Source: a virus (lineage: Duplodnaviria; Heunggongvirae; Uroviricota; Caudoviricetes). Taken from it: 15,279 bases of DNA. The notes beneath the pieces are model-generated. The model saw only the letters and a program-made list of their open reading frames with translations. It made no database searches and was not told where the DNA came from. Within the stretch, counting starts at the first letter, position 1. Each line of letters begins with the position of its first letter. Below, piece by piece: positions 1,610-14,019 of this stretch. The position numbers were made by a program, and so were the translations under genes. Location: the IMG/VR virus record IMGVR_UViG_2531839149_000015; one strand, 5' to 3'.

Positions 1610-1865
1610 CAGCTTGCGTAGCCCTGACAGTCTGTTTTGAGCGAACAGTGGACATTTTCAATGGCATTCTTGAGTAGGTTACGCTTAGACCAGAAGTAAG
1701 AGGTGATAGAATTATCAACAATACATAAAACATAGGGGATCCTTATTGATTTATTGATCTTGACCAACTTATGTGATGCAGTATGTCTTTAACTTGTATT
1801 ACTATTATCTTTATCTTTATCTTGTTGTTTCTAATAAACTTATCTTATTTCAGAAAGGAGTTTTT

Positions 1866-3566
1866 ATGCATTTAGTCACGAAATCTTATTTCGATGCCTT
1901 TTGCAAAGCATTCGCTGCGCCCTATGAGGAGACCAAAAATTTTGAGGCGTTTGTGAACTATTGTGCTTTTTCAAAATACTCAGGCGACAAAGTTGAGGTC
2001 AGTGATCTTGTGTATGAAGGCCCGGACCCTGGTATTGATGGAGCATTTTTATTTTTAGACGACAGAGCCATTTTTTCAACTGAAGAACTTCAGGAGATTT
2101 TCCAAAACTCACGTCGCGAGTTTCAAGTTTCATTAGTATTCACGCAAGCTAAGTCATCGGAGAAGTGGAGCAAACAGGAAATAGACTCTTACATTGCGTC
2201 AATAAGAGATTATCTTTCACCAGCGCCACAACAACCCCACAGTGAATATCTAGCGGACTTTAAAAAAATGTTCAACTTGATATTTGCTAATATCGGCAGA
2301 GTCAAAAATGGCCTTCCAGACTTATACGCATATTTTTTTAGTGCTGCACAAAATACAGAGGCCAGAGAAATAAAAGCTGCATTTGCATCGGGTGAAAAAA
2401 GCTTAAAGTCACTCGGGTTTTCACATGAAACATCCTTCATTATGGCTCACAAAGACATGATTCATGAGCTTTGGCTTGCTGCGGAAGGTCCAATAGAAGC
2501 TAAACTTCCTACAATAGGCTATGCTCCATTCCCAGCGGCCCCTAATATTAATAATGCCTATGTAGCTACAGTCAAAGCTCGTAGTTTTATTGATTCTATA
2601 CTTAAAGACAAAAATGGAAACCCTCGAAAAAAATTATTCGAAGAAAATGTTAGAGATTTTCTGGGAATTGATGGTGACGTAAATTCAGAAATTGCAGGAA
2701 CACTAGATACTGATGGAAAAAAAGCAAGATTTGGTTTAATGAATAATGGAGTGACAATAGTTGCATCAAGCGTGAGGCCTGCAGGGCAAGAAATTTTTAT
2801 ACGAGATTTTCAAATTGTTAATGGATGTCAAACGTCTAATGTTCTTATATCAAAAGACATTCAAGTAGATGAATCAGTTAGTTTAATGATTAAATTAATT
2901 GAAACCGATGAGCCAGCGATCCTTGATGACATTGTACGAGCTACGAATAGACAATCTAAAGTTGAAGATGCACAGTTCATTTCAACGCTAAAAAAATTAA
3001 GGGAATTAGAACATTATTTTAATGCTAAAGGTGCTATTGAAGGAAATAAAATTTATTTTGAGAGAAGAAAGGGGCAGTATAGTTCAGAAAGTATAGCTCC
3101 AGTACGCATATTTGATATCAGAGAAGTTGCGCGAGCATATGCTGCTATTGTTATGATGAGACCAGATTATTCCAGTCGTTATCCAAATAGGTTAACTGGT
3201 GACTTACTTAATGAGGTTTTCTCTTCCGATGCCCTCGAGGATGATTATTATATATCTTGCTATTGCTTGTATAGGCTAAAGGCTCTTATCTCAAATAAGA
3301 GGTTTGATGGGAAGTATTCAAAATTACGCTGGCATATTCTAACTGCTGCGTCAAAATACTGTGGTAATAATTATAAGGCTTGGGGGTTCAAAAATAAAAA
3401 TGAAGCTCTTCATAACTTATTCTCAATGAATGATGGGGAGTGGTTTGAAAAACTTGAGAGTTTAGTAAAAATAGCTATACCAGATCCGGATATTTCTCGA
3501 GACTTACTAAAGTCGCAGCCTTTAACATCAACGATTCTCAAAAGTGTTGATAGCGTACCTAAATAA
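1866..3566 (+). CDS. AIPR-like abortive-infection protein (ParB/DndB-like fold with NGxQT-type motif); cargo gene between int and xis
   Basis: Strong RBS AAAGGAG (1854-1860) then ATG 1866; the ORF-track start at 1773 is an AT-rich leader artifact. 566 aa, markedly AT-rich versus flanks. Contains GIDG near the N-terminus and FQIVNGCQTSNVL in the middle, which I associate with the AIPR family. Followed by hairpin 3573-3591. Confidence 0.6.
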   Translation: MHLVTKSYFDAFCKAFAAPYEETKNFEAFVNYCAFSKYSGDKVEVSDLVYEGPDPGIDGAFLFLDDRAIFSTEELQEIFQNSRREFQVSLVFTQAKSSEKWSKQEIDSYIASIRDYLSPAPQQPHSEYLADFKKMFNLIFANIGRVKNGLPDLYAYFFSAAQNTEAREIKAAFASGEKSLKSLGFSHETSFIMAHKDMIHELWLAAEGPIEAKLPTIGYAPFPAAPNINNAYVATVKARSFIDSILKDKNGNPRKKLFEENVRDFLGIDGDVNSEIAGTLDTDGKKARFGLMNNGVTIVASSVRPAGQEIFIRDFQIVNGCQTSNVLISKDIQVDESVSLMIKLIETDEPAILDDIVRATNRQSKVEDAQFISTLKKLRELEHYFNAKGAIEGNKIYFERRKGQYSSESIAPVRIFDIREVARAYAAIVMMRPDYSSRYPNRLTGDLLNEVFSSDALEDDYYISCYCLYRLKALISNKRFDGKYSKLRWHILTAASKYCGNNYKAWGFKNKNEALHNLFSMNDGEWFEKLESLVKIAIPDPDISRDLLKSQPLTSTILKSVDSVPK

Positions 3567-8110: not shown

Positions 8111-8737
8111 TTAGAGTTCGTATTGAACTCCTTTGACTACACCAATGATAAGGCAATTACCATTGATAGGGATGTTGGGATACCGAGGATTTAATGGTAC
8201 TAAAAACTTTTGAGGGCCATCGATGACTAATTTTTTTACTGTAGCTTCGTTTGTTCCATCAAGTCGAGCGATGACTATTTTTCCATGACGAGGTTCTGCA
8301 TCTGGATCTACAATCACTGTTGCGCCTTCTGGTATTGTTGGGAGGCCATTAGGGTTAGTCATGGAGTCACCTTTAACCTCTAATGCAAATGAGTTATCAC
8401 CAACCTTTAATGATGTATCTACCCACTTGTCCACTTCACTAAACACTTCTGCTGCCCTGCACTCAGTAAACTGCCCAGCCTGAACCCACGATATTACAGG
8501 AACTCTGCGCATGTTTGTGACGAGTTTGCCTTCAAACTCAGCACCATAAAGAATGTAATCTATTGACGTATTGAAGAACTTCGCTAATTTCGAAAGTGCC
8601 TCCCCACCAGGGGTATTGATGTCTTTCTCCCAGTACCCCACAGCAACGTCGCTTACTCCACAAAATTTACCCAATTCTTTCTGGGACGTTCTGGTAACTC
8701 TTCTCAGAGCTTTTATACGCTGACCAACCGTTTCCAT
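8111..8737 (-). CDS. cI: CI-like repressor (XRE-type HTH plus S24 LexA-like autopeptidase domain)
   Basis: 208 aa; N-terminal HTH (QKELGKFCGVSDVAVGYWE), C-terminal S24 signature with GDSM serine and KKL lysine; divergent from a cro-like gene. Confidence 0.85.
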   Translation of the reverse strand: METVGQRIKALRRVTRTSQKELGKFCGVSDVAVGYWEKDINTPGGEALSKLAKFFNTSIDYILYGAEFEGKLVTNMRRVPVISWVQAGQFTECRAAEVFSEVDKWVDTSLKVGDNSFALEVKGDSMTNPNGLPTIPEGATVIVDPDAEPRHGKIVIARLDGTNEATVKKLVIDGPQKFLVPLNPRYPNIPINGNCLIIGVVKGVQYEL

Positions 8738-9035: not shown

Positions 9036-9630
9036 ATCGATTAACAGAAACCACAGAACGATGAGGCTAACCGTGGGTAAGCATCACTGGAAAGTAGAAA
9101 AACAGCCTGAGTGGTACGTGAAAGCTGTCAGAAAAACTATCGCAGCGTTGCCGGGGGGTTACGCTGAAGCAGCTGACTGGCTGGATGTAACAGAGAACGC
9201 ATTATTTAACCGCCTTCGTGCCGATGGCGATCAGATTTTCCCGCTGGGATGGGCAATGATTTTGCAACGTGCTGGTGGAACTCACTTCATTGCTGACGCT
9301 GTGGCGCAGTCTGCAAATGGCGTCTTTGTGTCTCTTCCTGACGTCGAGGATGTGGACAACGCCGATATTAACCAGCGTCTGCTGGAAGTCATTGAACAGA
9401 TCGGCAGTTATTCAAAACAGATTCGTTCAGCAATCGAAGACGGTGTAGTGGAACCGCATGAGAAGACAGCAATTAACGACGAGCTGTATCTCTCAATTTC
9501 GAAGCTGCAGGAGCATGCAGCACTTGTCTACAAAATTTTTTGCATTTCAGAAAGTAATGACGCCCGCGAGTGTGCAGCTCCGGGCGTCGTGGCGTCGATT
9601 GCTTCTGGTTGTGGAGAAACTAACGCATGA
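9016..9630 (+). CDS. CII-like / YdaT-type phage regulatory protein
   Basis: Start uncertain (ATG 9016 or 9028, overlapping the cro end; ORF track begins 8959). Position after cro and general features suggest a CII/CP76-type regulator; assignment is by synteny and memory. Confidence 0.5.
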
Positions 9631-9965
9631 ACAGTTTAACAACACACTACCGTCGCTCGCAACTGATTGCGCTTCCTGTACCGGGTGGAAAAGCGAAGGT
9701 GGAGTATTGCTATGCAGTAAATGTACCAGGTGACAGGGAAATTGTAACCCACAGCTTTGCAGAGTGGGCTGTGGGTGATTTCAACCGGCAGAAGGAGACA
9801 GTCCTTTGCGACAAGTTAACCGCTGGTTCAAAGATCACTACGGAGTGCCCGTCAGAGTCATTCGTTGGGAACCGGAAACACAACGGGTTATCTACCTCCG
9901 CGAAGGCTATGAGCATGAGTGCTTCAGCCCGCTCGAACAGTTTCGTCGTAAATTCAGGGAAATAG
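9627..9965 (+). CDS. Hypothetical ORF coupled to the upstream gene; 3' portion probably not real
   Basis: ATG overlaps the upstream stop (ATGA). The C-terminal half is Ser-rich and low-complexity, and it overlaps a better-looking ORF in another frame (9806-9985). Confidence 0.3.
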
Positions 9966-9985
9966 AGGTCGGTCATGAGCACTAA
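9806..9985 (+). CDS. Small conserved phage protein (59 aa, TTG start); resembles DUF4222-type proteins found upstream of replication genes
   Basis: RBS AAGGAGA (9792-9798) 7 nt before TTG 9806; translation [59 protein letters not shown] has natural-protein composition; stop overlaps the start of the replication gene (coupling). Not in the ORF track because of the TTG start and length. Confidence 0.45.
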
Positions 9986-10916
9986 ATTAACCGGCTATGT
10001 ATGGGATGGTTGCGCTGCATCAGGCATGAAGTTATCCAGCGTGGCAATTATGGCCCGCCTGGCTGATTTCAGTAATGACGAAGGTGTGTGCTGGCCATCA
10101 ATTGAAACCATTGCCCGTCAGATTGGCGCGGGGATGAGTACCGTCAGAACGGCTATCGCACGGCTGGAAGCAGAAGGCTGGTTAACGCGTAAGGCGCGTC
10201 GCCAGGGTAACCGCAATGCGTCGAATGTTTATCAGCTTAACGTTGCGAAGCTTCAGGCAGCGGCATTTTCTCAACTGTCAGATTCTGACCCGTCAAAATC
10301 TGACGCATCAAAATCTGACCCGTCAAAATTTGATGCGTCGAAATCTGGCAAAAAAGCGGGTTTTCACCCGTCAGAATCTGGCGGGGATCCGTCAGTAAAA
10401 TCAAAACATGATCCGTCAGATAAAAAACCTTCTCGTCCGGACGCTTCGCAACCGGACACGCAGACGGATGAACAGGATTTTTTAACTCGCCATCCTGATG
10501 CGGTTGTATTCAGCCCTAAAAAGCGCCAGTGGGGGACGCAGGATGATTTGACCTGCGCACAGTGGCTCTGGAAAAAAATCATCGCCCTGTACGAGCAGGC
10601 TGCCGAATGTGACAGCGAGGTGGTTCGTCCCAAAGAACCGAACTGGACAGCCTGGGCAAACGAAATTCGCCTGATGTGTGTGCAGGATGGTCGTACTCAC
10701 AAACAAATCTGCGAGATGTACAGCCGCGTCAGCCGCGATCCGTTCTGGTGCCGTAACGTGCTCAGCCCGTCGAAGCTGCGGGAAAAATGGGATGAGCTTT
10801 CCCTGCGCTTATCGCCGTCCGTCAGCACGTACACAGAAAAACGCGAAGACCCGTACTTCAAAGCCAGTTACGACAATGTGGACTACAGCCAGATCCCGGC
10901 AGGATTCAGGGGGTGA
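9975..10916 (+). CDS. Phage replication initiation protein (N-terminal winged-helix DNA-binding domain, pentapeptide-repeat linker, C-terminal domain)
   Basis: 313 aa; N-terminal HTH (SIETIARQIGAGMSTVRTAIARLEAEGWL); central PSKSD/ASKSD repeats encoded by 15-bp DNA iterons; occupies the gene-O position after the cII-like gene. Confidence 0.75.
   Translation: MSTKLTGYVWDGCAASGMKLSSVAIMARLADFSNDEGVCWPSIETIARQIGAGMSTVRTAIARLEAEGWLTRKARRQGNRNASNVYQLNVAKLQAAAFSQLSDSDPSKSDASKSDPSKFDASKSGKKAGFHPSESGGDPSVKSKHDPSDKKPSRPDASQPDTQTDEQDFLTRHPDAVVFSPKKRQWGTQDDLTCAQWLWKKIIALYEQAAECDSEVVRPKEPNWTAWANEIRLMCVQDGRTHKQICEMYSRVSRDPFWCRNVLSPSKLREKWDELSLRLSPSVSTYTEKREDPYFKASYDNVDYSQIPAGFRG
10275..10349. repeat. Five contiguous 15-bp iterons inside the replication gene (candidate origin), with degenerate copies to about 10427
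   Basis: CTGTCAGATTCTGAC / CCGTCAAAATCTGAC / GCATCAAAATCTGAC / CCGTCAAAATTTGAT / GCGTCGAAATCTGGC; further CCGTCAGAATCTGGC (10368), CCGTCAGTAAAATC (10389), CCGTCAGATAAAAAA (10413) with A-rich stretches. Confidence 0.6.
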
Positions 10917-10918
10917 GC

Positions 10919-11407
10919 ATGAGTCTTTTGAATGACGTTCAGAAATTCATTGAAGCCCATCCGGGCTGTACTTCCGGAGACATTGCGGATGCTTTTGCAG
11001 GTTACTCACGGCAGCGCGTTCTGCAGTCAGCAAGCAAGTTACGTCAGAGTGGGCGTGTGGCTCACCGTTGTGAAGGAGATACACACAGACATTTCCCGCG
11101 CCTGACTGAGAGAGCGCAGGATCCGGAACCACAACCAGTTCGTGAAACCAGACCTGTGCGCAATTTCTATGTCGGCACTAACGACCCGCGGGTGATTTTG
11201 TGCCTGACCCGCCAGGCGGAAGAACTGGAGTCCAGGGGCTTATACCGTCGTGCTGCAACGGTGTGGATGGCGGCATTCCGTGAAAGCCACTCCCTGCCAG
11301 AACGAAACAATTTTTTGGCGCGTCGTGAACGGTGTTTACGGAAAAGCAGTAAGCGGGCTGCATCAGGTGAAGAGTGGTATCTCTCAGGGAATTACGTGGG
11401 GGCTTAA
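10919..11407 (+). CDS. Hypothetical protein with C-terminal PerC-like motif
   Basis: ATG 10919 (RBS AGGGGG; overlaps upstream stop). C-terminal LTRQAEELESRGLYRRAATVWM closely parallels RKAEELESKGLYRRAAARWM of the PerC-family ORF at 13738. No Walker motifs, so not a P/DnaC-type helicase loader. Confidence 0.6.
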   Translation: MSLLNDVQKFIEAHPGCTSGDIADAFAGYSRQRVLQSASKLRQSGRVAHRCEGDTHRHFPRLTERAQDPEPQPVRETRPVRNFYVGTNDPRVILCLTRQAEELESRGLYRRAATVWMAAFRESHSLPERNNFLARRERCLRKSSKRAASGEEWYLSGNYVGA

Positions 11408-12060
11408 TGAGTAATAAATATTGCCAGGCGCTGGTGGAACTGCGGAACAAACCAGCCCATGAACTGAAGGAAGTGGGCGATCAGTGGCGCACGCCGGACA
11501 ACATTTTCTGGGGAATTAACACCCTGTTTGGCCCGTTTGTTCTGGATCTGTTCACTGACGGTGATAACGCCAAATGTGCTGCGTATTACACGGCGGAAGA
11601 CAACGCGCTGGCGCATGACTGGTCAGAACGCCTTGCGGAGCTTAAAGGTGCTGCCTTTGGTAATCCCCCATACAGCCGCGCCAGTCAGCATGAGGGGCAA
11701 TACATCACCGGCATGCGTTACATCATGAAGCATGCCAGTGCCATGCGTGATAAAGGCGGGCGCTATGTTTTCCTGATCAAAGCTGCCACCAGCGAAGTGT
11801 GGTGGCCGGAAGATGTAGAACATATTGCTTTTATTCGCGGGCGTATTGGTTTTGAACTGCCTGCCTGGTTTATCCCGAAGGATGAGAAGCAGGTGCCGAC
11901 AGGCGCTTTCTTCGCTGGTGCTATTGCTGTTTTCGACAAGACCTGGAAGGGACCGGCAATCAGCTACATCGGGCGCGATGAACTTGAGGCATGTGGTGAG
12001 GCCTTTCTGGCGCAGATTCGCCAGCAGGCAGAAAAACTGGTCAGGGAGATGGCGGCATGA
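11407..12060 (+). CDS. Phage-type DNA N6-adenine methyltransferase
   Basis: Start at ATG 11407 overlapping the upstream stop; catalytic NPPY motif (AAFGNPPYSR); size about 217 aa typical of phage Dam-family enzymes. Confidence 0.8.
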   Translation: MSNKYCQALVELRNKPAHELKEVGDQWRTPDNIFWGINTLFGPFVLDLFTDGDNAKCAAYYTAEDNALAHDWSERLAELKGAAFGNPPYSRASQHEGQYITGMRYIMKHASAMRDKGGRYVFLIKAATSEVWWPEDVEHIAFIRGRIGFELPAWFIPKDEKQVPTGAFFAGAIAVFDKTWKGPAISYIGRDELEACGEAFLAQIRQQAEKLVREMAA

Positions 12061-12383
12061 CGACGTTAACTCAATGCCAGCAGCAGGTGCTGGATATGCT
12101 GATTTCTTATCAGAAAGAACGCGGCTTCCCGCCAACCAATCAGGAGGTGGCAACCATGCTGGGATACCGTTCGGTGAATGCAGCGGTGGAGCATCTTCGC
12201 GCACTGGAGAAAAAAGGCGTCATCACGATAAAGCGTGGTGTGGCCCGGGGGATCACGCTTCATACCGCGGTGAAGGACGACGACAGCGAGGCGGTCGGGA
12301 TTATCCGCTCACTGCTTGCCGGTGAGGAAAACGCAAGGCTGCGTGCAGCCCACTGGTTACATGAGAGGGGGCTGAAAGTATGA
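12057..12383 (+). CDS. LexA N-terminal DNA-binding-domain-like protein (no peptidase domain)
   Basis: 108 aa; MTTLTQCQQQVLDMLISYQKERGFPPTNQEVATMLGYRSVNAAVEHLRALEKKGVI parallels the LexA winged-helix domain; ends without an S24 domain. ATGA overlap with the Dam stop. Confidence 0.6.
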   Translation: MTTLTQCQQQVLDMLISYQKERGFPPTNQEVATMLGYRSVNAAVEHLRALEKKGVITIKRGVARGITLHTAVKDDDSEAVGIIRSLLAGEENARLRAAHWLHERGLKV

Positions 12384-12592
12384 AGCTGATTCTGCCTTTT
12401 CCACCCAGCGTGAACACCTACTGGCGACACCCCAACAAAGGGGCATTTGCTGGTAAGAGCCTGATAAGCGCGGCGGGGCGAAAATTCCAAAGTGCGGCGT
12501 GCACAGCAATAGTTGAGCAGTTACGTCGTCTGCCGAAACCAACGTCGGCACCTGCTTCAGTGGAGATCGTGTTGTTTCCTCCGGATATCTGA
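12380..12592 (+). pseudogene. rusA: Truncated rusA (Holliday-junction resolvase) N-terminal fragment
   Basis: LPFPPSVNTYWRH matches the RusA N-terminal motif; the ORF stops after ...VEIVLFPPDI (70 aa), where full-length RusA would continue with its catalytic acidic residues. No continuation in other frames; downstream sequence is unrelated. Confidence 0.65.
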
Positions 12593-13022: not shown

Positions 13023-13478
13023 TTATACGCTGACCTTACAATCAATCACCGCTTTTAACTTTTCAGCATTGCTTCCCTGACGCTTCCACGCGCTGTAAAT
13101 ATCTTTATCCCACGCTTTACCAGCTTTTGTTTGATAGCCTGCTTCATTGATCCGTTCAGCTATCACACGCCCATTATCAAATCCCTGTCGGATGGTATCG
13201 GCAATGATCTTTATAACTGCCGTTTCGTTATATGGCTTTGGTGGGATGTTCGGCTTTCCGGCAATAAGCGACGCAGCAGCTTTTTCCATGCGCTCCACCA
13301 GCCCAAGCATTCGTGAATCAATAGACTTTTCCGGCTGTCCCAGCTTCATGCGAATCGCATCAACAAGCCAGGAGGTTTTATCCCCTCCAGAAGCGAGAAC
13401 AGACCGATTAAACTCATCCTGCAATTCAGATGGGATGCGGAACGCGACCAGATTAGATTTGCTCATTGCAAAGACCAT
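13023..13478 (-). CDS. Putative DNA-binding regulator (ribbon-helix-helix-like N-terminus)
   Basis: N-terminal SNLVAFRIPSELQDEFNRSVLASGGDKTSWLVDAIRMKL resembles Arc/CopG-type RHH; C-terminal AGYQTKAGKAWDKDIYSAWKR resembles a recombinase-type DNA-binding helix. Start ambiguous (ATG 13478 or 13466); no clear SD. Confidence 0.55.
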   Translation of the reverse strand: MVFAMSKSNLVAFRIPSELQDEFNRSVLASGGDKTSWLVDAIRMKLGQPEKSIDSRMLGLVERMEKAAASLIAGKPNIPPKPYNETAVIKIIADTIRQGFDNGRVIAERINEAGYQTKAGKAWDKDIYSAWKRQGSNAEKLKAVIDCKVSV

Positions 13479-13580
13479 ATCAGTGAGTAATATCCATACA
13501 GTATATCACTGTATAACACTGTTATACGCTCAAATATCAGCCAGAAAATAACGGGCCAATCACAAAGCTATCGCTGTGTT

Positions 13581-13701
13581 GTTGGTTCAGAGCTGGGCTG
13601 TGTTGGTTCAAAATGAGTTGATGTTGGTTCAATATTTTAGAAAAAACATAATAAAAACAACGATCTTTACAAATTGAACCAACTGAACCAACTGAACCAA
13701 C
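13581..13701. repeat. Iteron-like array: three GTTGGTTCA direct repeats phased at 21 bp, then three tandem inverted copies TGAACCAAC
   Basis: GTTGGTTCA at 13581, 13602, 13623; TGAACCAAC at 13675, 13684, 13693; AT-rich spacer between; lies between divergent genes (13478 minus, 13738 plus). Confidence 0.6.
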
Positions 13702-13737
13702 ACCTTTTTGCTTATCTATATAATCTGAGAGGCAGAA

Positions 13738-14019
13738 ATGATAAGGGACAGGAAAGCTGAAGAGCTGGAGTCAAAAGGGCTATACCGGAGAGCTGCCGCA
13801 CGATGGATGGAAGTCATGCTGTTATGCAGCGAGGACGATGATCGGGAATGGATAAAGCGCCGCCGTGAAACGTGTCTGGAGAACGTGAAGCGCCCGCCCG
13901 TGAAGGTTGAGGAATTTGGCGACCTGCATAAAGCTGTTACCGAAACGCAACACCGCATGGGGATAGCGCAACCGAACGGTAACGCCTTCCGGTTAAATGG
14001 CGGCAAGAGGCAAAGGTAG
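13738..14019 (+). CDS. PerC-family transcriptional activator (Pch-like)
   Basis: 93 aa; MIRDRKAEELESKGLYRRAAARWMEV... matches the PerC/Pch signature as I recall it; RBS GAGAGG upstream. Confidence 0.6.
   Translation: MIRDRKAEELESKGLYRRAAARWMEVMLLCSEDDDREWIKRRRETCLENVKRPPVKVEEFGDLHKAVTETQHRMGIAQPNGNAFRLNGGKRQR

Follow-up and report, generated by a model that had tools for sequence, protein, structure and literature searches.

A prophage-encoded LexA DNA-binding domain without its protease domain, and its possible binding to SOS boxes

The stretch of phage DNA analysed here, 15,279 nucleotides (nt) of IMG/VR record IMGVR_UViG_2531839149_000015 (Caudoviricetes) and hereafter called the window, encodes a protein of 108 amino acids (aa) in which a LexA-type DNA-binding domain is followed by a short conserved tail, and the S24 peptidase domain of LexA is missing. 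We call it the LexA-like protein. Its gene is a typical member of a family that is already catalogued and annotated and is very common in Escherichia coli prophages, and phage-borne LexA DNA-binding domains without a protease are themselves a known kind of protein, with one studied precedent, gp6 of GIL01. We propose, with a probability of roughly 40%, that the protein would be a RecA-insensitive binder of SOS-box-type DNA that is made from the early lytic transcript. This proposal comes from comparison of sequences and predicted structures, and the evidence for it is laid out below, together with three other explanations of the same protein.

The domain content is clear. Residues 1-65 match all 65 positions of the Pfam model LexA_DNA_bind (PF01726) with E=2.9e-19 and 69 bits, the cut-off of the model being 23.7 bits, and no match to Peptidase_S24 was found in the 108-aa product in the Pfam scan. 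The top solved-structure match by sequence is the DNA-binding domain of E. coli LexA (1lea, E=7e-16, residues 2-69). In BLASTP against full-length E. coli LexA, the protein is 43% identical across residues 1-90, and LexA residues 91-202, the catalytic part, have no significant BLASTP match to it. The NCBIfam lexA equivalog model TIGR00498 is aligned at model positions 1-91 of 203 with 70.8 bits, which is below its cut-off of 110.95 bits. The initial annotation had described the open reading frame (ORF) at 12057-12383 as a LexA N-terminal domain without S24 and had proposed the search with LexA_DNA_bind, which returned a match over the full model length; coordinates, Pfam, BLASTP, TIGR00498 and fold all agree with that description. 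At the identical locus, the RefSeq product is WP_000210164.1, named 'LexA family transcriptional regulator'.

The fold was modelled with AlphaFold2 on a 42-sequence alignment, with a mean predicted local distance difference test score (pLDDT) of 85. The model superposes on LexA of the LexA-DNA crystal structure 3jso with a root-mean-square deviation of 0.9 Å over 67 columns at 51% identity (Foldseek), and the deviations for 3jso and 1lea together range from 0.9 to 1.2 Å. In the model, the winged helix is made of helices 6-22, 28-35 and 40-53 and strands 56-58 and 66-68. The gene and the parts of its product are as follows.

12057..12383, + strand: LexA-like gene, stop included; ORF of 108 aa, ATG at 12057 and TGA at 12381-12383
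12057..12263, + strand: residues 1-69, predicted winged helix-turn-helix (AlphaFold2, pLDDT 80-90)
12171..12215, + strand: residues 39-53, recognition helix SVNAAVEHLRALEKK, placed by alignments; S39, N41, A42 and E45 are kept and E44 is replaced by V
12264..12281, + strand: residues 70-75, acidic flexible linker TAVKDD (pLDDT <50 at 72-75)
12276..12362, + strand: residues 74-102, predicted two-helix hairpin, helices 74-88 and 93-102 (pLDDT ~91)

Compared with E. coli LexA, the LexA-like protein shares the winged-helix fold, 51% identity over 67-68 residues and the recognition signature S-x-N-A-A-x-E-H-L, and the homology runs through the linker to about residue 90. Unlike LexA, it has neither S24, nor the Ser119/Lys156 dyad, nor the C-terminal dimer interface, so that RecA-stimulated autocleavage is not to be expected. 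It has instead a two-helix hairpin in place of the catalytic core and V in place of E44, it is encoded by phages and not at the host SOS locus, and it stays below the TIGR00498 cut-off.

The linker differs in length and sequence among family members. In the hairpin, L86, L87, A97 and L101 are invariant in the 42-sequence alignment, and at least 90% of the sequences keep G89, A93, R94, W100 and G105; the window protein has every one of these residues, and the hairpin is retained in distant representatives that are 33-47% identical. Such a confidently predicted and conserved element fits a needed function, for example dimerisation. By our own reading of the sequence, the hydrophobic surface of the hairpin is wider than self-packing requires, and the hairpin is therefore a reasonable candidate for a dimerisation element.

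The family corresponds to PHROG 362, a phage 'transcriptional repressor' (E=1.4e-59, residues 1-108 against profile positions 1-106 of 106). A profile search gave 545 homologues, nearly all of 106-108 aa, in Escherichia, Salmonella, Citrobacter, Enterobacter, Leclercia, Pantoea and Hafnia. They form two clades that are about 45% identical to each other, the SfV/mEp460 clade and the mEp390 clade. The DNA of the gene is found in 2225 of 5426 complete E. coli genomes at a coverage of at least 80% (2233 of 5426 if any match is counted), and in 50 phage records, including SfV, SfII, SfIV, mEp460, cdtI and Stx2a, Stx2c and Stx2k phages. SfV orf42, mEp460 gp46 and the cdtI protein, mis-annotated as 'RecA-mediated autopeptidase', belong to PHROG 362 and are 97-100% identical to the product of the window gene. 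The labels in phage records are 'LexA family', 'LexA DNA binding domain protein' or 'transcriptional repressor', and some records wrongly say 'SOS-response repressor and protease'. In a comparison of Shiga toxin (Stx) phages, a 'LexA family' pham with pfam01726 only is listed without comment for 15 phages (PMC8136144); this Pham 237 is probably PHROG 362. Among 1.84 billion cluster representatives, 20,015 matched at E <=0.001, and many of the best 150 of them are short proteins with the LexA N-terminal domain alone. About 12 further representatives, 33-47% identical, have the same layout of domain plus tail. Four proteins of 140-170 aa (P0196, P0208, P0209 and P0214) are built solely from two LexA DNA-binding domains in tandem, possibly a single-chain 'dimer' version of the stand-alone domain.

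The origin of the protein can be read from its tail. The first helix of the hairpin still aligns with the linker and cleavage-site stretch of LexA (IIRSLLAGE against LVGRVAAGE), and this suggests, at the level of sequence comparison, a DNA-binding protein that descends from a gammaproteobacterial lexA, of which roughly 90 codons from the start were kept and some 18 new ones added. The two helices of the hairpin would then be formed jointly by the cleavage-site remnant and the new C-terminus. A broken lexA pseudogene was also considered and was ruled out by the conserved tail and by the length, which is fixed at 106-108 aa over the 545 homologues. In the alignment, A88-G89 stand opposite the scissile A84-G85 of LexA; there is no catalytic domain in cis, and the stretch is predicted to be helical. 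This remnant raises another explanation, in which the protein would act through protein contacts, either as a decoy or inhibitor at S24 active sites (those of host LexA, UmuD or phage cI) or at RecA filaments, with an effect on cleavage, or as a substrate cleaved in trans. The reach of the LexA alignments to residue 90, the conservation of G89 in at least 90% of sequences and the likeness of LLAGE to VAAGE of LexA all speak for it. However, AlphaFold2 gives a helix here rather than the extended loop of a cleavage site; the second clade has S in place of A88, and some members have N in place of G89. The strongly conserved recognition helix would also be left without an explanation. We regard this explanation as very improbable.

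Of all segments of the protein, the recognition helix resembles LexA most. Its identity to E. coli LexA is 0.62-0.72, against 0.26-0.41 for helix 1 and 0.25-0.38 for helix 2. The DNA-contact residues reported for E. coli LexA, taken here from secondary sources, are S39, N41, A42, E44 and E45 (PMC3091678, PMC13416735). Residue numbering is the same in both proteins because the alignment is ungapped up to residue 69. Among the 42 sequences from both clades, S39 and N41 never vary, and A42, A43, E45 and H46 are each kept in at least 90%, so that four of the five contact residues are retained in the family. K53 and G54 are also invariant in this alignment. It was reported that the LexA variant G54C gives disulphide-linked dimers, from which it follows that residue 54 of both DNA-binding domains can approach closely, and that the DNA-binding domains of LexA build an extensive interface on the operator (PMC3159453). 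This pattern of conservation is what would be expected if recognition of LexA-type CTGT half-sites were kept under selection, although it is weaker than a binding test. It lends indirect backing to the suggestion of the initial annotation that the protein could sit on SOS-type operators and yet escape cleavage.

The setting of the gene bears on when it would be expressed. The prophage of the window is lambdoid, defective and of the CPS-53/KpLE1 type, and in near-identical E. coli chromosomes it is inserted beside tRNA-Thr and proA. It contains an integrase gene, an AbiU gene, early-left genes of the yfdP/Q/R type, a cI-type repressor gene and cro; then follow rightward an O-like replication gene, a PerC/YfdN gene, a Dam methyltransferase gene, the LexA-like gene and a cut rusA. 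No late genes are present in the window. The genes that matter for expression are listed here.

8111..8737, - strand: cI-type prophage repressor (Pfam HTH_3 and Peptidase_S24), annotated 'LexA family protein', beside the Cro/CI gene
9975-10916, + strand: O-like replication initiator, in the same tightly packed rightward operon
10913-11407, + strand: PerC/YfdN-family protein gene, in the same tightly packed rightward operon
12044..12049, + strand: Shine-Dalgarno-like GGGAGA, read from the letters of the sequence; the end of its GGAG is 8 nt 5' of the ATG

A search of the + strand from about 9300 to 12400, where the genes are contiguous or overlapping, gave no sigma-70-like promoter. The LexA-like gene is thus most simply placed in the rightward early operon governed by the repressor, and it is probably transcribed from the rightward promoter of the immunity region. 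By analogy with lambdoid organisation, the cI-type repressor is likely to control this operon and hence the timing of the LexA-like gene. The gene stands where lambdoid phages have their 'nin' region, with the replication genes on one side and Q on the other, and the gene order puts it in the delayed-early operon. In the related phages, a Q antiterminator gene is present for late control, and the stretch from the replication gene to Q is almost contiguous, without a conserved intergenic operator.

At the left end of the prophage, the integrase gene is adjoined by an AbiU-type abortive-infection or defence gene (1773-3566, 597 aa, PADLOC E=2.8e-111), where related prophages have Dsr1 or different cargo. 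A marginal CARF3 match in the PADLOC scan (E=3.6e-4) was disregarded.

The proposed action of the protein can be described in a few steps. The gene would be transcribed in the early rightward transcript once the cI-type repressor is gone, after SOS induction or infection. Two copies of the product would be joined via the hairpin, via LexA-type contacts between N-terminal domains on DNA, or via both, and the dimer would bind CTGT-type half-sites, most likely canonical SOS boxes. Since there is no S24 catalytic domain, activated RecA could not inactivate the protein, and SOS-box promoters would be kept shut while host LexA is destroyed. The promoters concerned would be those of host SOS genes and of SOS-box-controlled accessory genes of its own and co-resident prophages. 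In the window, where the prophage is defective (it has no late genes and rusA is cut), the gene would be expressed only upon cleavage of the resident repressor. A stronger form of this idea, that the protein is an uncleavable LexA surrogate switched on in lytic growth to re-impose repression of the SOS regulon, is in our view possible but doubtful. Such a surrogate would silence host repair and toxin genes as well as SOS-triggered genes of rival prophages, colicins and defence systems, and RusA could then stand in for the RuvAB resolvase, which is under SOS control and would be shut off alongside.

Several observations weigh against binding to SOS boxes. The contact residue E44 is lost in the whole family, one clade having V at position 44 and the other A, and residue 28 is N in the window protein instead of R. 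Distant relatives (Klebsiella, Hafnia, Citrobacter P0088) differ at positions 41-45, which indicates that specificity can drift in distant subfamilies. The isolated N-terminal domain of LexA binds DNA much more weakly than the dimer. No functional study of the PHROG 362 family was found in the literature. In the window, sites of the form CTGT-N8-ACAG with at most one mismatch number 5 against 5.0 expected, and with a position-specific scoring matrix trained on E. coli SOS boxes the best window score is 10.6 bits, which lies inside the shuffle range (training sites score at least 12.6). Finally, no conserved cis-linked target of the SOS type was found across 160 related IMG/VR loci, 80 from the SfV/mEp460 clade or clade A and 80 from the mEp390 clade or clade B, the set that also served for the counts of dyads and of gene linkage.

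SOS boxes are present around the gene in many of these loci. At least one lies within 8 kb of the gene in 42 of the 80 clade-A loci and in 10 of the 80 clade-B loci, and the clade-A boxes belong to differing modules: the dinI promoter, the inside of cI, a late-region methylase and the region 3' of rusA. When CTGT dyads of all spacings and orientations were counted near the gene in the 160 loci, only the canonical N8 arrangement of the SOS box was enriched, which speaks for the proposal. If SOS boxes are bound, the lack of a conserved cis-linked operator would put the main targets in trans, in the host regulon and in other elements. Among intact relatives, three strong SOS boxes stand 5' of a Panacea-domain gene. 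Intact relatives carry strong SOS boxes and also DinI-like genes, so that the SOS circuit already includes these phages, and this too is in favour of the proposal.

Individual boxes in the relatives were also recorded. DinI-like genes lie at 22993-23306 in mEp460 (L002), at 45049-45358 in phiSTEC1575-Stx2k (L003) and at 1-234 in L006, and in mEp460 and phiSTEC1575-Stx2k the promoter of the gene has two adjacent SOS boxes. The strong canonical SOS box TACTGTTTTTACATACAGTA (24.7 bits) is located inside the cI-type coding sequence, in the linker between the helix-turn-helix and S24 domains; it occurs at 31970-31989 in L002, at 7725-7744 in L003, and about -4450 from the gene in 16 of 80 IMG/VR loci. 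In PhiR49_1 (L004), the canonical SOS box TACTGTATTTATGAACAGTG at 9937-9956 stands between rusA and a KilA-N-domain gene, which suggests that in some relatives a LexA-controlled, antirepressor-like KilA-N gene adjoins the cassette of the LexA-like gene and rusA. A late-region gene for an N6_N4 DNA methylase, situated between Q and the holin gene, has the SOS box TACTGTAAAAATAAACAGTG across its first codons (L002, 41021-41040; 18 of 80 IMG/VR loci, at about +4900). A CTGTA-N12-TACAG element, TTGTACCTGTAAACCTTGTGCAGTACAGTAAACA, is found +3400 to +4700 from the gene in 14 of 80 IMG/VR loci (L009-L088).

If SOS boxes are not the target, the protein may be a phage-specific regulator with its own operator, which represses or activates a phage promoter. 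The precedent is gp6 of GIL01/Bam35, a 66-aa truncated Bacillus LexA homologue, which binds the distinct palindrome GaCACAn-nTGTGaC at the late promoter P3, where the site overlaps the -35 element, and activates it; a truncated LexA homologue can thus gain a new site and an activator role (PMC6182141), and this precedent also counts against the SOS-box proposal. Like the LexA-like protein, gp6 is a LexA DNA-binding domain of a temperate phage without a protease domain and is expressed from an early operon. Unlike it, gp6 has no C-terminal hairpin. It recognises a non-SOS palindrome and is an activator, while the PHROG 362 family comes from gammaproteobacterial LexA, has kept the contact residues and belongs to Q-controlled lambdoid phages. 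No BLASTP alignment between the two proteins was obtained at E up to 100, so that they appear as independent, convergent truncations. The family-wide change of E44 to V or A, the variable recognition helix of distant relatives and the generic labels of PHROG and RefSeq (transcriptional repressor or regulator) would suit a regulator of this type as well.

However, a search of CTGT-type half-sites revealed no family-specific operator, in that no conserved non-SOS dyad is found near the gene in the 160 loci, and the replication gene-to-Q stretch leaves no room for a conserved intergenic operator. The conservation of S39, N41, A42 and E45 over both clades argues for retained LexA-type base contacts, and similarity to gp6 is not detectable. 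There is also no obvious need for a late activator when late genes are under Q. The idea of a regulator of late genes, which had been raised in the initial annotation, therefore finds no support, as no family-specific operator was found and the phages carry Q for late control. Even so, a phage operator of its own is the main alternative to SOS boxes, somewhat less probable than they are.

The direct neighbours of the gene lead to a further explanation. They are given here.

11374..12060, + strand: phage Dam methyltransferase gene (Pfam Dam E=3.4e-45; RefSeq start at 11407)
12380..12592, + strand: rusA, truncated to 70 aa (PHROG 34 RusA E=2.2e-22)

The Dam stop and the start of the LexA-like gene overlap in ATGA at 12057-12060, and the stop of the LexA-like gene and the rusA start overlap in ATGA at 12380-12383, by which these two genes are coupled in translation. 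In RefSeq, rusA is a pseudogene without its C-terminus, and alignments to intact phages stop at 12587, which is where rusA breaks off. The region beyond 12587 is unrelated accessory DNA with a 73-aa ORF, a 151-aa ORF, PerC and a Panacea-domain gene.

rusA lies directly 3' of the LexA-like gene in 160 of 160 related loci of both clades and is full-length there, usually followed by a DUF968/HNH gene and Q. On the other side, the neighbour differs among loci and is Dam, PerC or a replication protein; Dam precedes the gene in 51 of 80 clade-A loci and in 0 of 80 clade-B loci. The conserved unit is thus the LexA-like gene with rusA, and the coupling to Dam is local and incidental. The earlier statement that the gene is coupled to Dam and to the rusA fragment is true of the overlaps in the window, but the part that concerns Dam does not extend to the family.

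Such constancy suggests that the protein could be a partner of RusA that assists it by binding DNA, or that regulates the rusA cassette locally; the two might then process recombination intermediates together while the phage replicates. rusA comes next even in clades that are only about 45% identical, whereas the 5' neighbour varies, and the 4-bp stop/start overlap is the same in the window and in mEp390. However, nin regions often keep their gene order without functional coupling, relatives in phages of Klebsiella, Edwardsiella and Hafnia are not beside rusA, and the LexA-like gene is intact here despite the truncated rusA. Moreover, RusA resolves junctions alone. We consider a partnership with RusA unlikely.

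The initial annotation had also named a palindrome at 13500-13530 as a site at which to test binding. It lies past the end of the homology at 12587, outside the module that the phages conserve, and the promoter region in which it falls serves an unrelated gene of the opposite strand, which makes it a poor candidate. The surrounding segment at 13496-13536, ATACAGTATATCACTGTATAACACTGTTATAC, has three ACTGTAT-like half-sites, arranged as ACAG-N7-CTGT and a direct repeat 10 bp on. The gene with this promoter region is the ORF at 13023-13478 on the - strand, which has no Pfam match and whose N-terminus looks ribbon-helix-helix-like by eye. Nearby, at 13573-13703 and just 5' of a second PerC-family gene (13738-14019), there is an iteron-like array of three direct copies of TGTTGGTTCA with 21-bp spacing, an AT-rich spacer and three inverted copies of TGAACCAAC about 9-10 bp apart. 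The array could be an origin or a multi-site operator.

Mobile elements are known to modulate the SOS response of their hosts by other means. PsiB of plasmids acts at the protein level, on RecA or LexA. The outcome proposed for the LexA-like protein, a host SOS response damped or reshaped for the benefit of the element, is shared with DinI-like phage proteins and with GIL01 gp7, which act on the RecA or LexA protein, whereas the LexA-like protein would act at DNA. DinI-like genes co-occur with it in relatives such as mEp460, phiSTEC1575-Stx2k and one Klebsiella phage. If our proposal is true, there would be an anti-SOS mechanism at the level of DNA that is distinct from those of DinI, PsiB and gp7, and it would concern a family present in about 41% of complete E. 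coli genomes and in several Stx2-converting phages. If the protein binds its own site instead, it would be one more small phage regulator. Should SOS boxes be its target, the response of E. coli to DNA damage would be reshaped at prophage induction by a prophage gene that is very common, with consequences for the induction of Shiga toxin phages by antibiotics, for the competition among co-resident prophages and for SOS-driven mutagenesis. It would also be a natural case of a repressor that has turned into a signal-blind mimic of itself.

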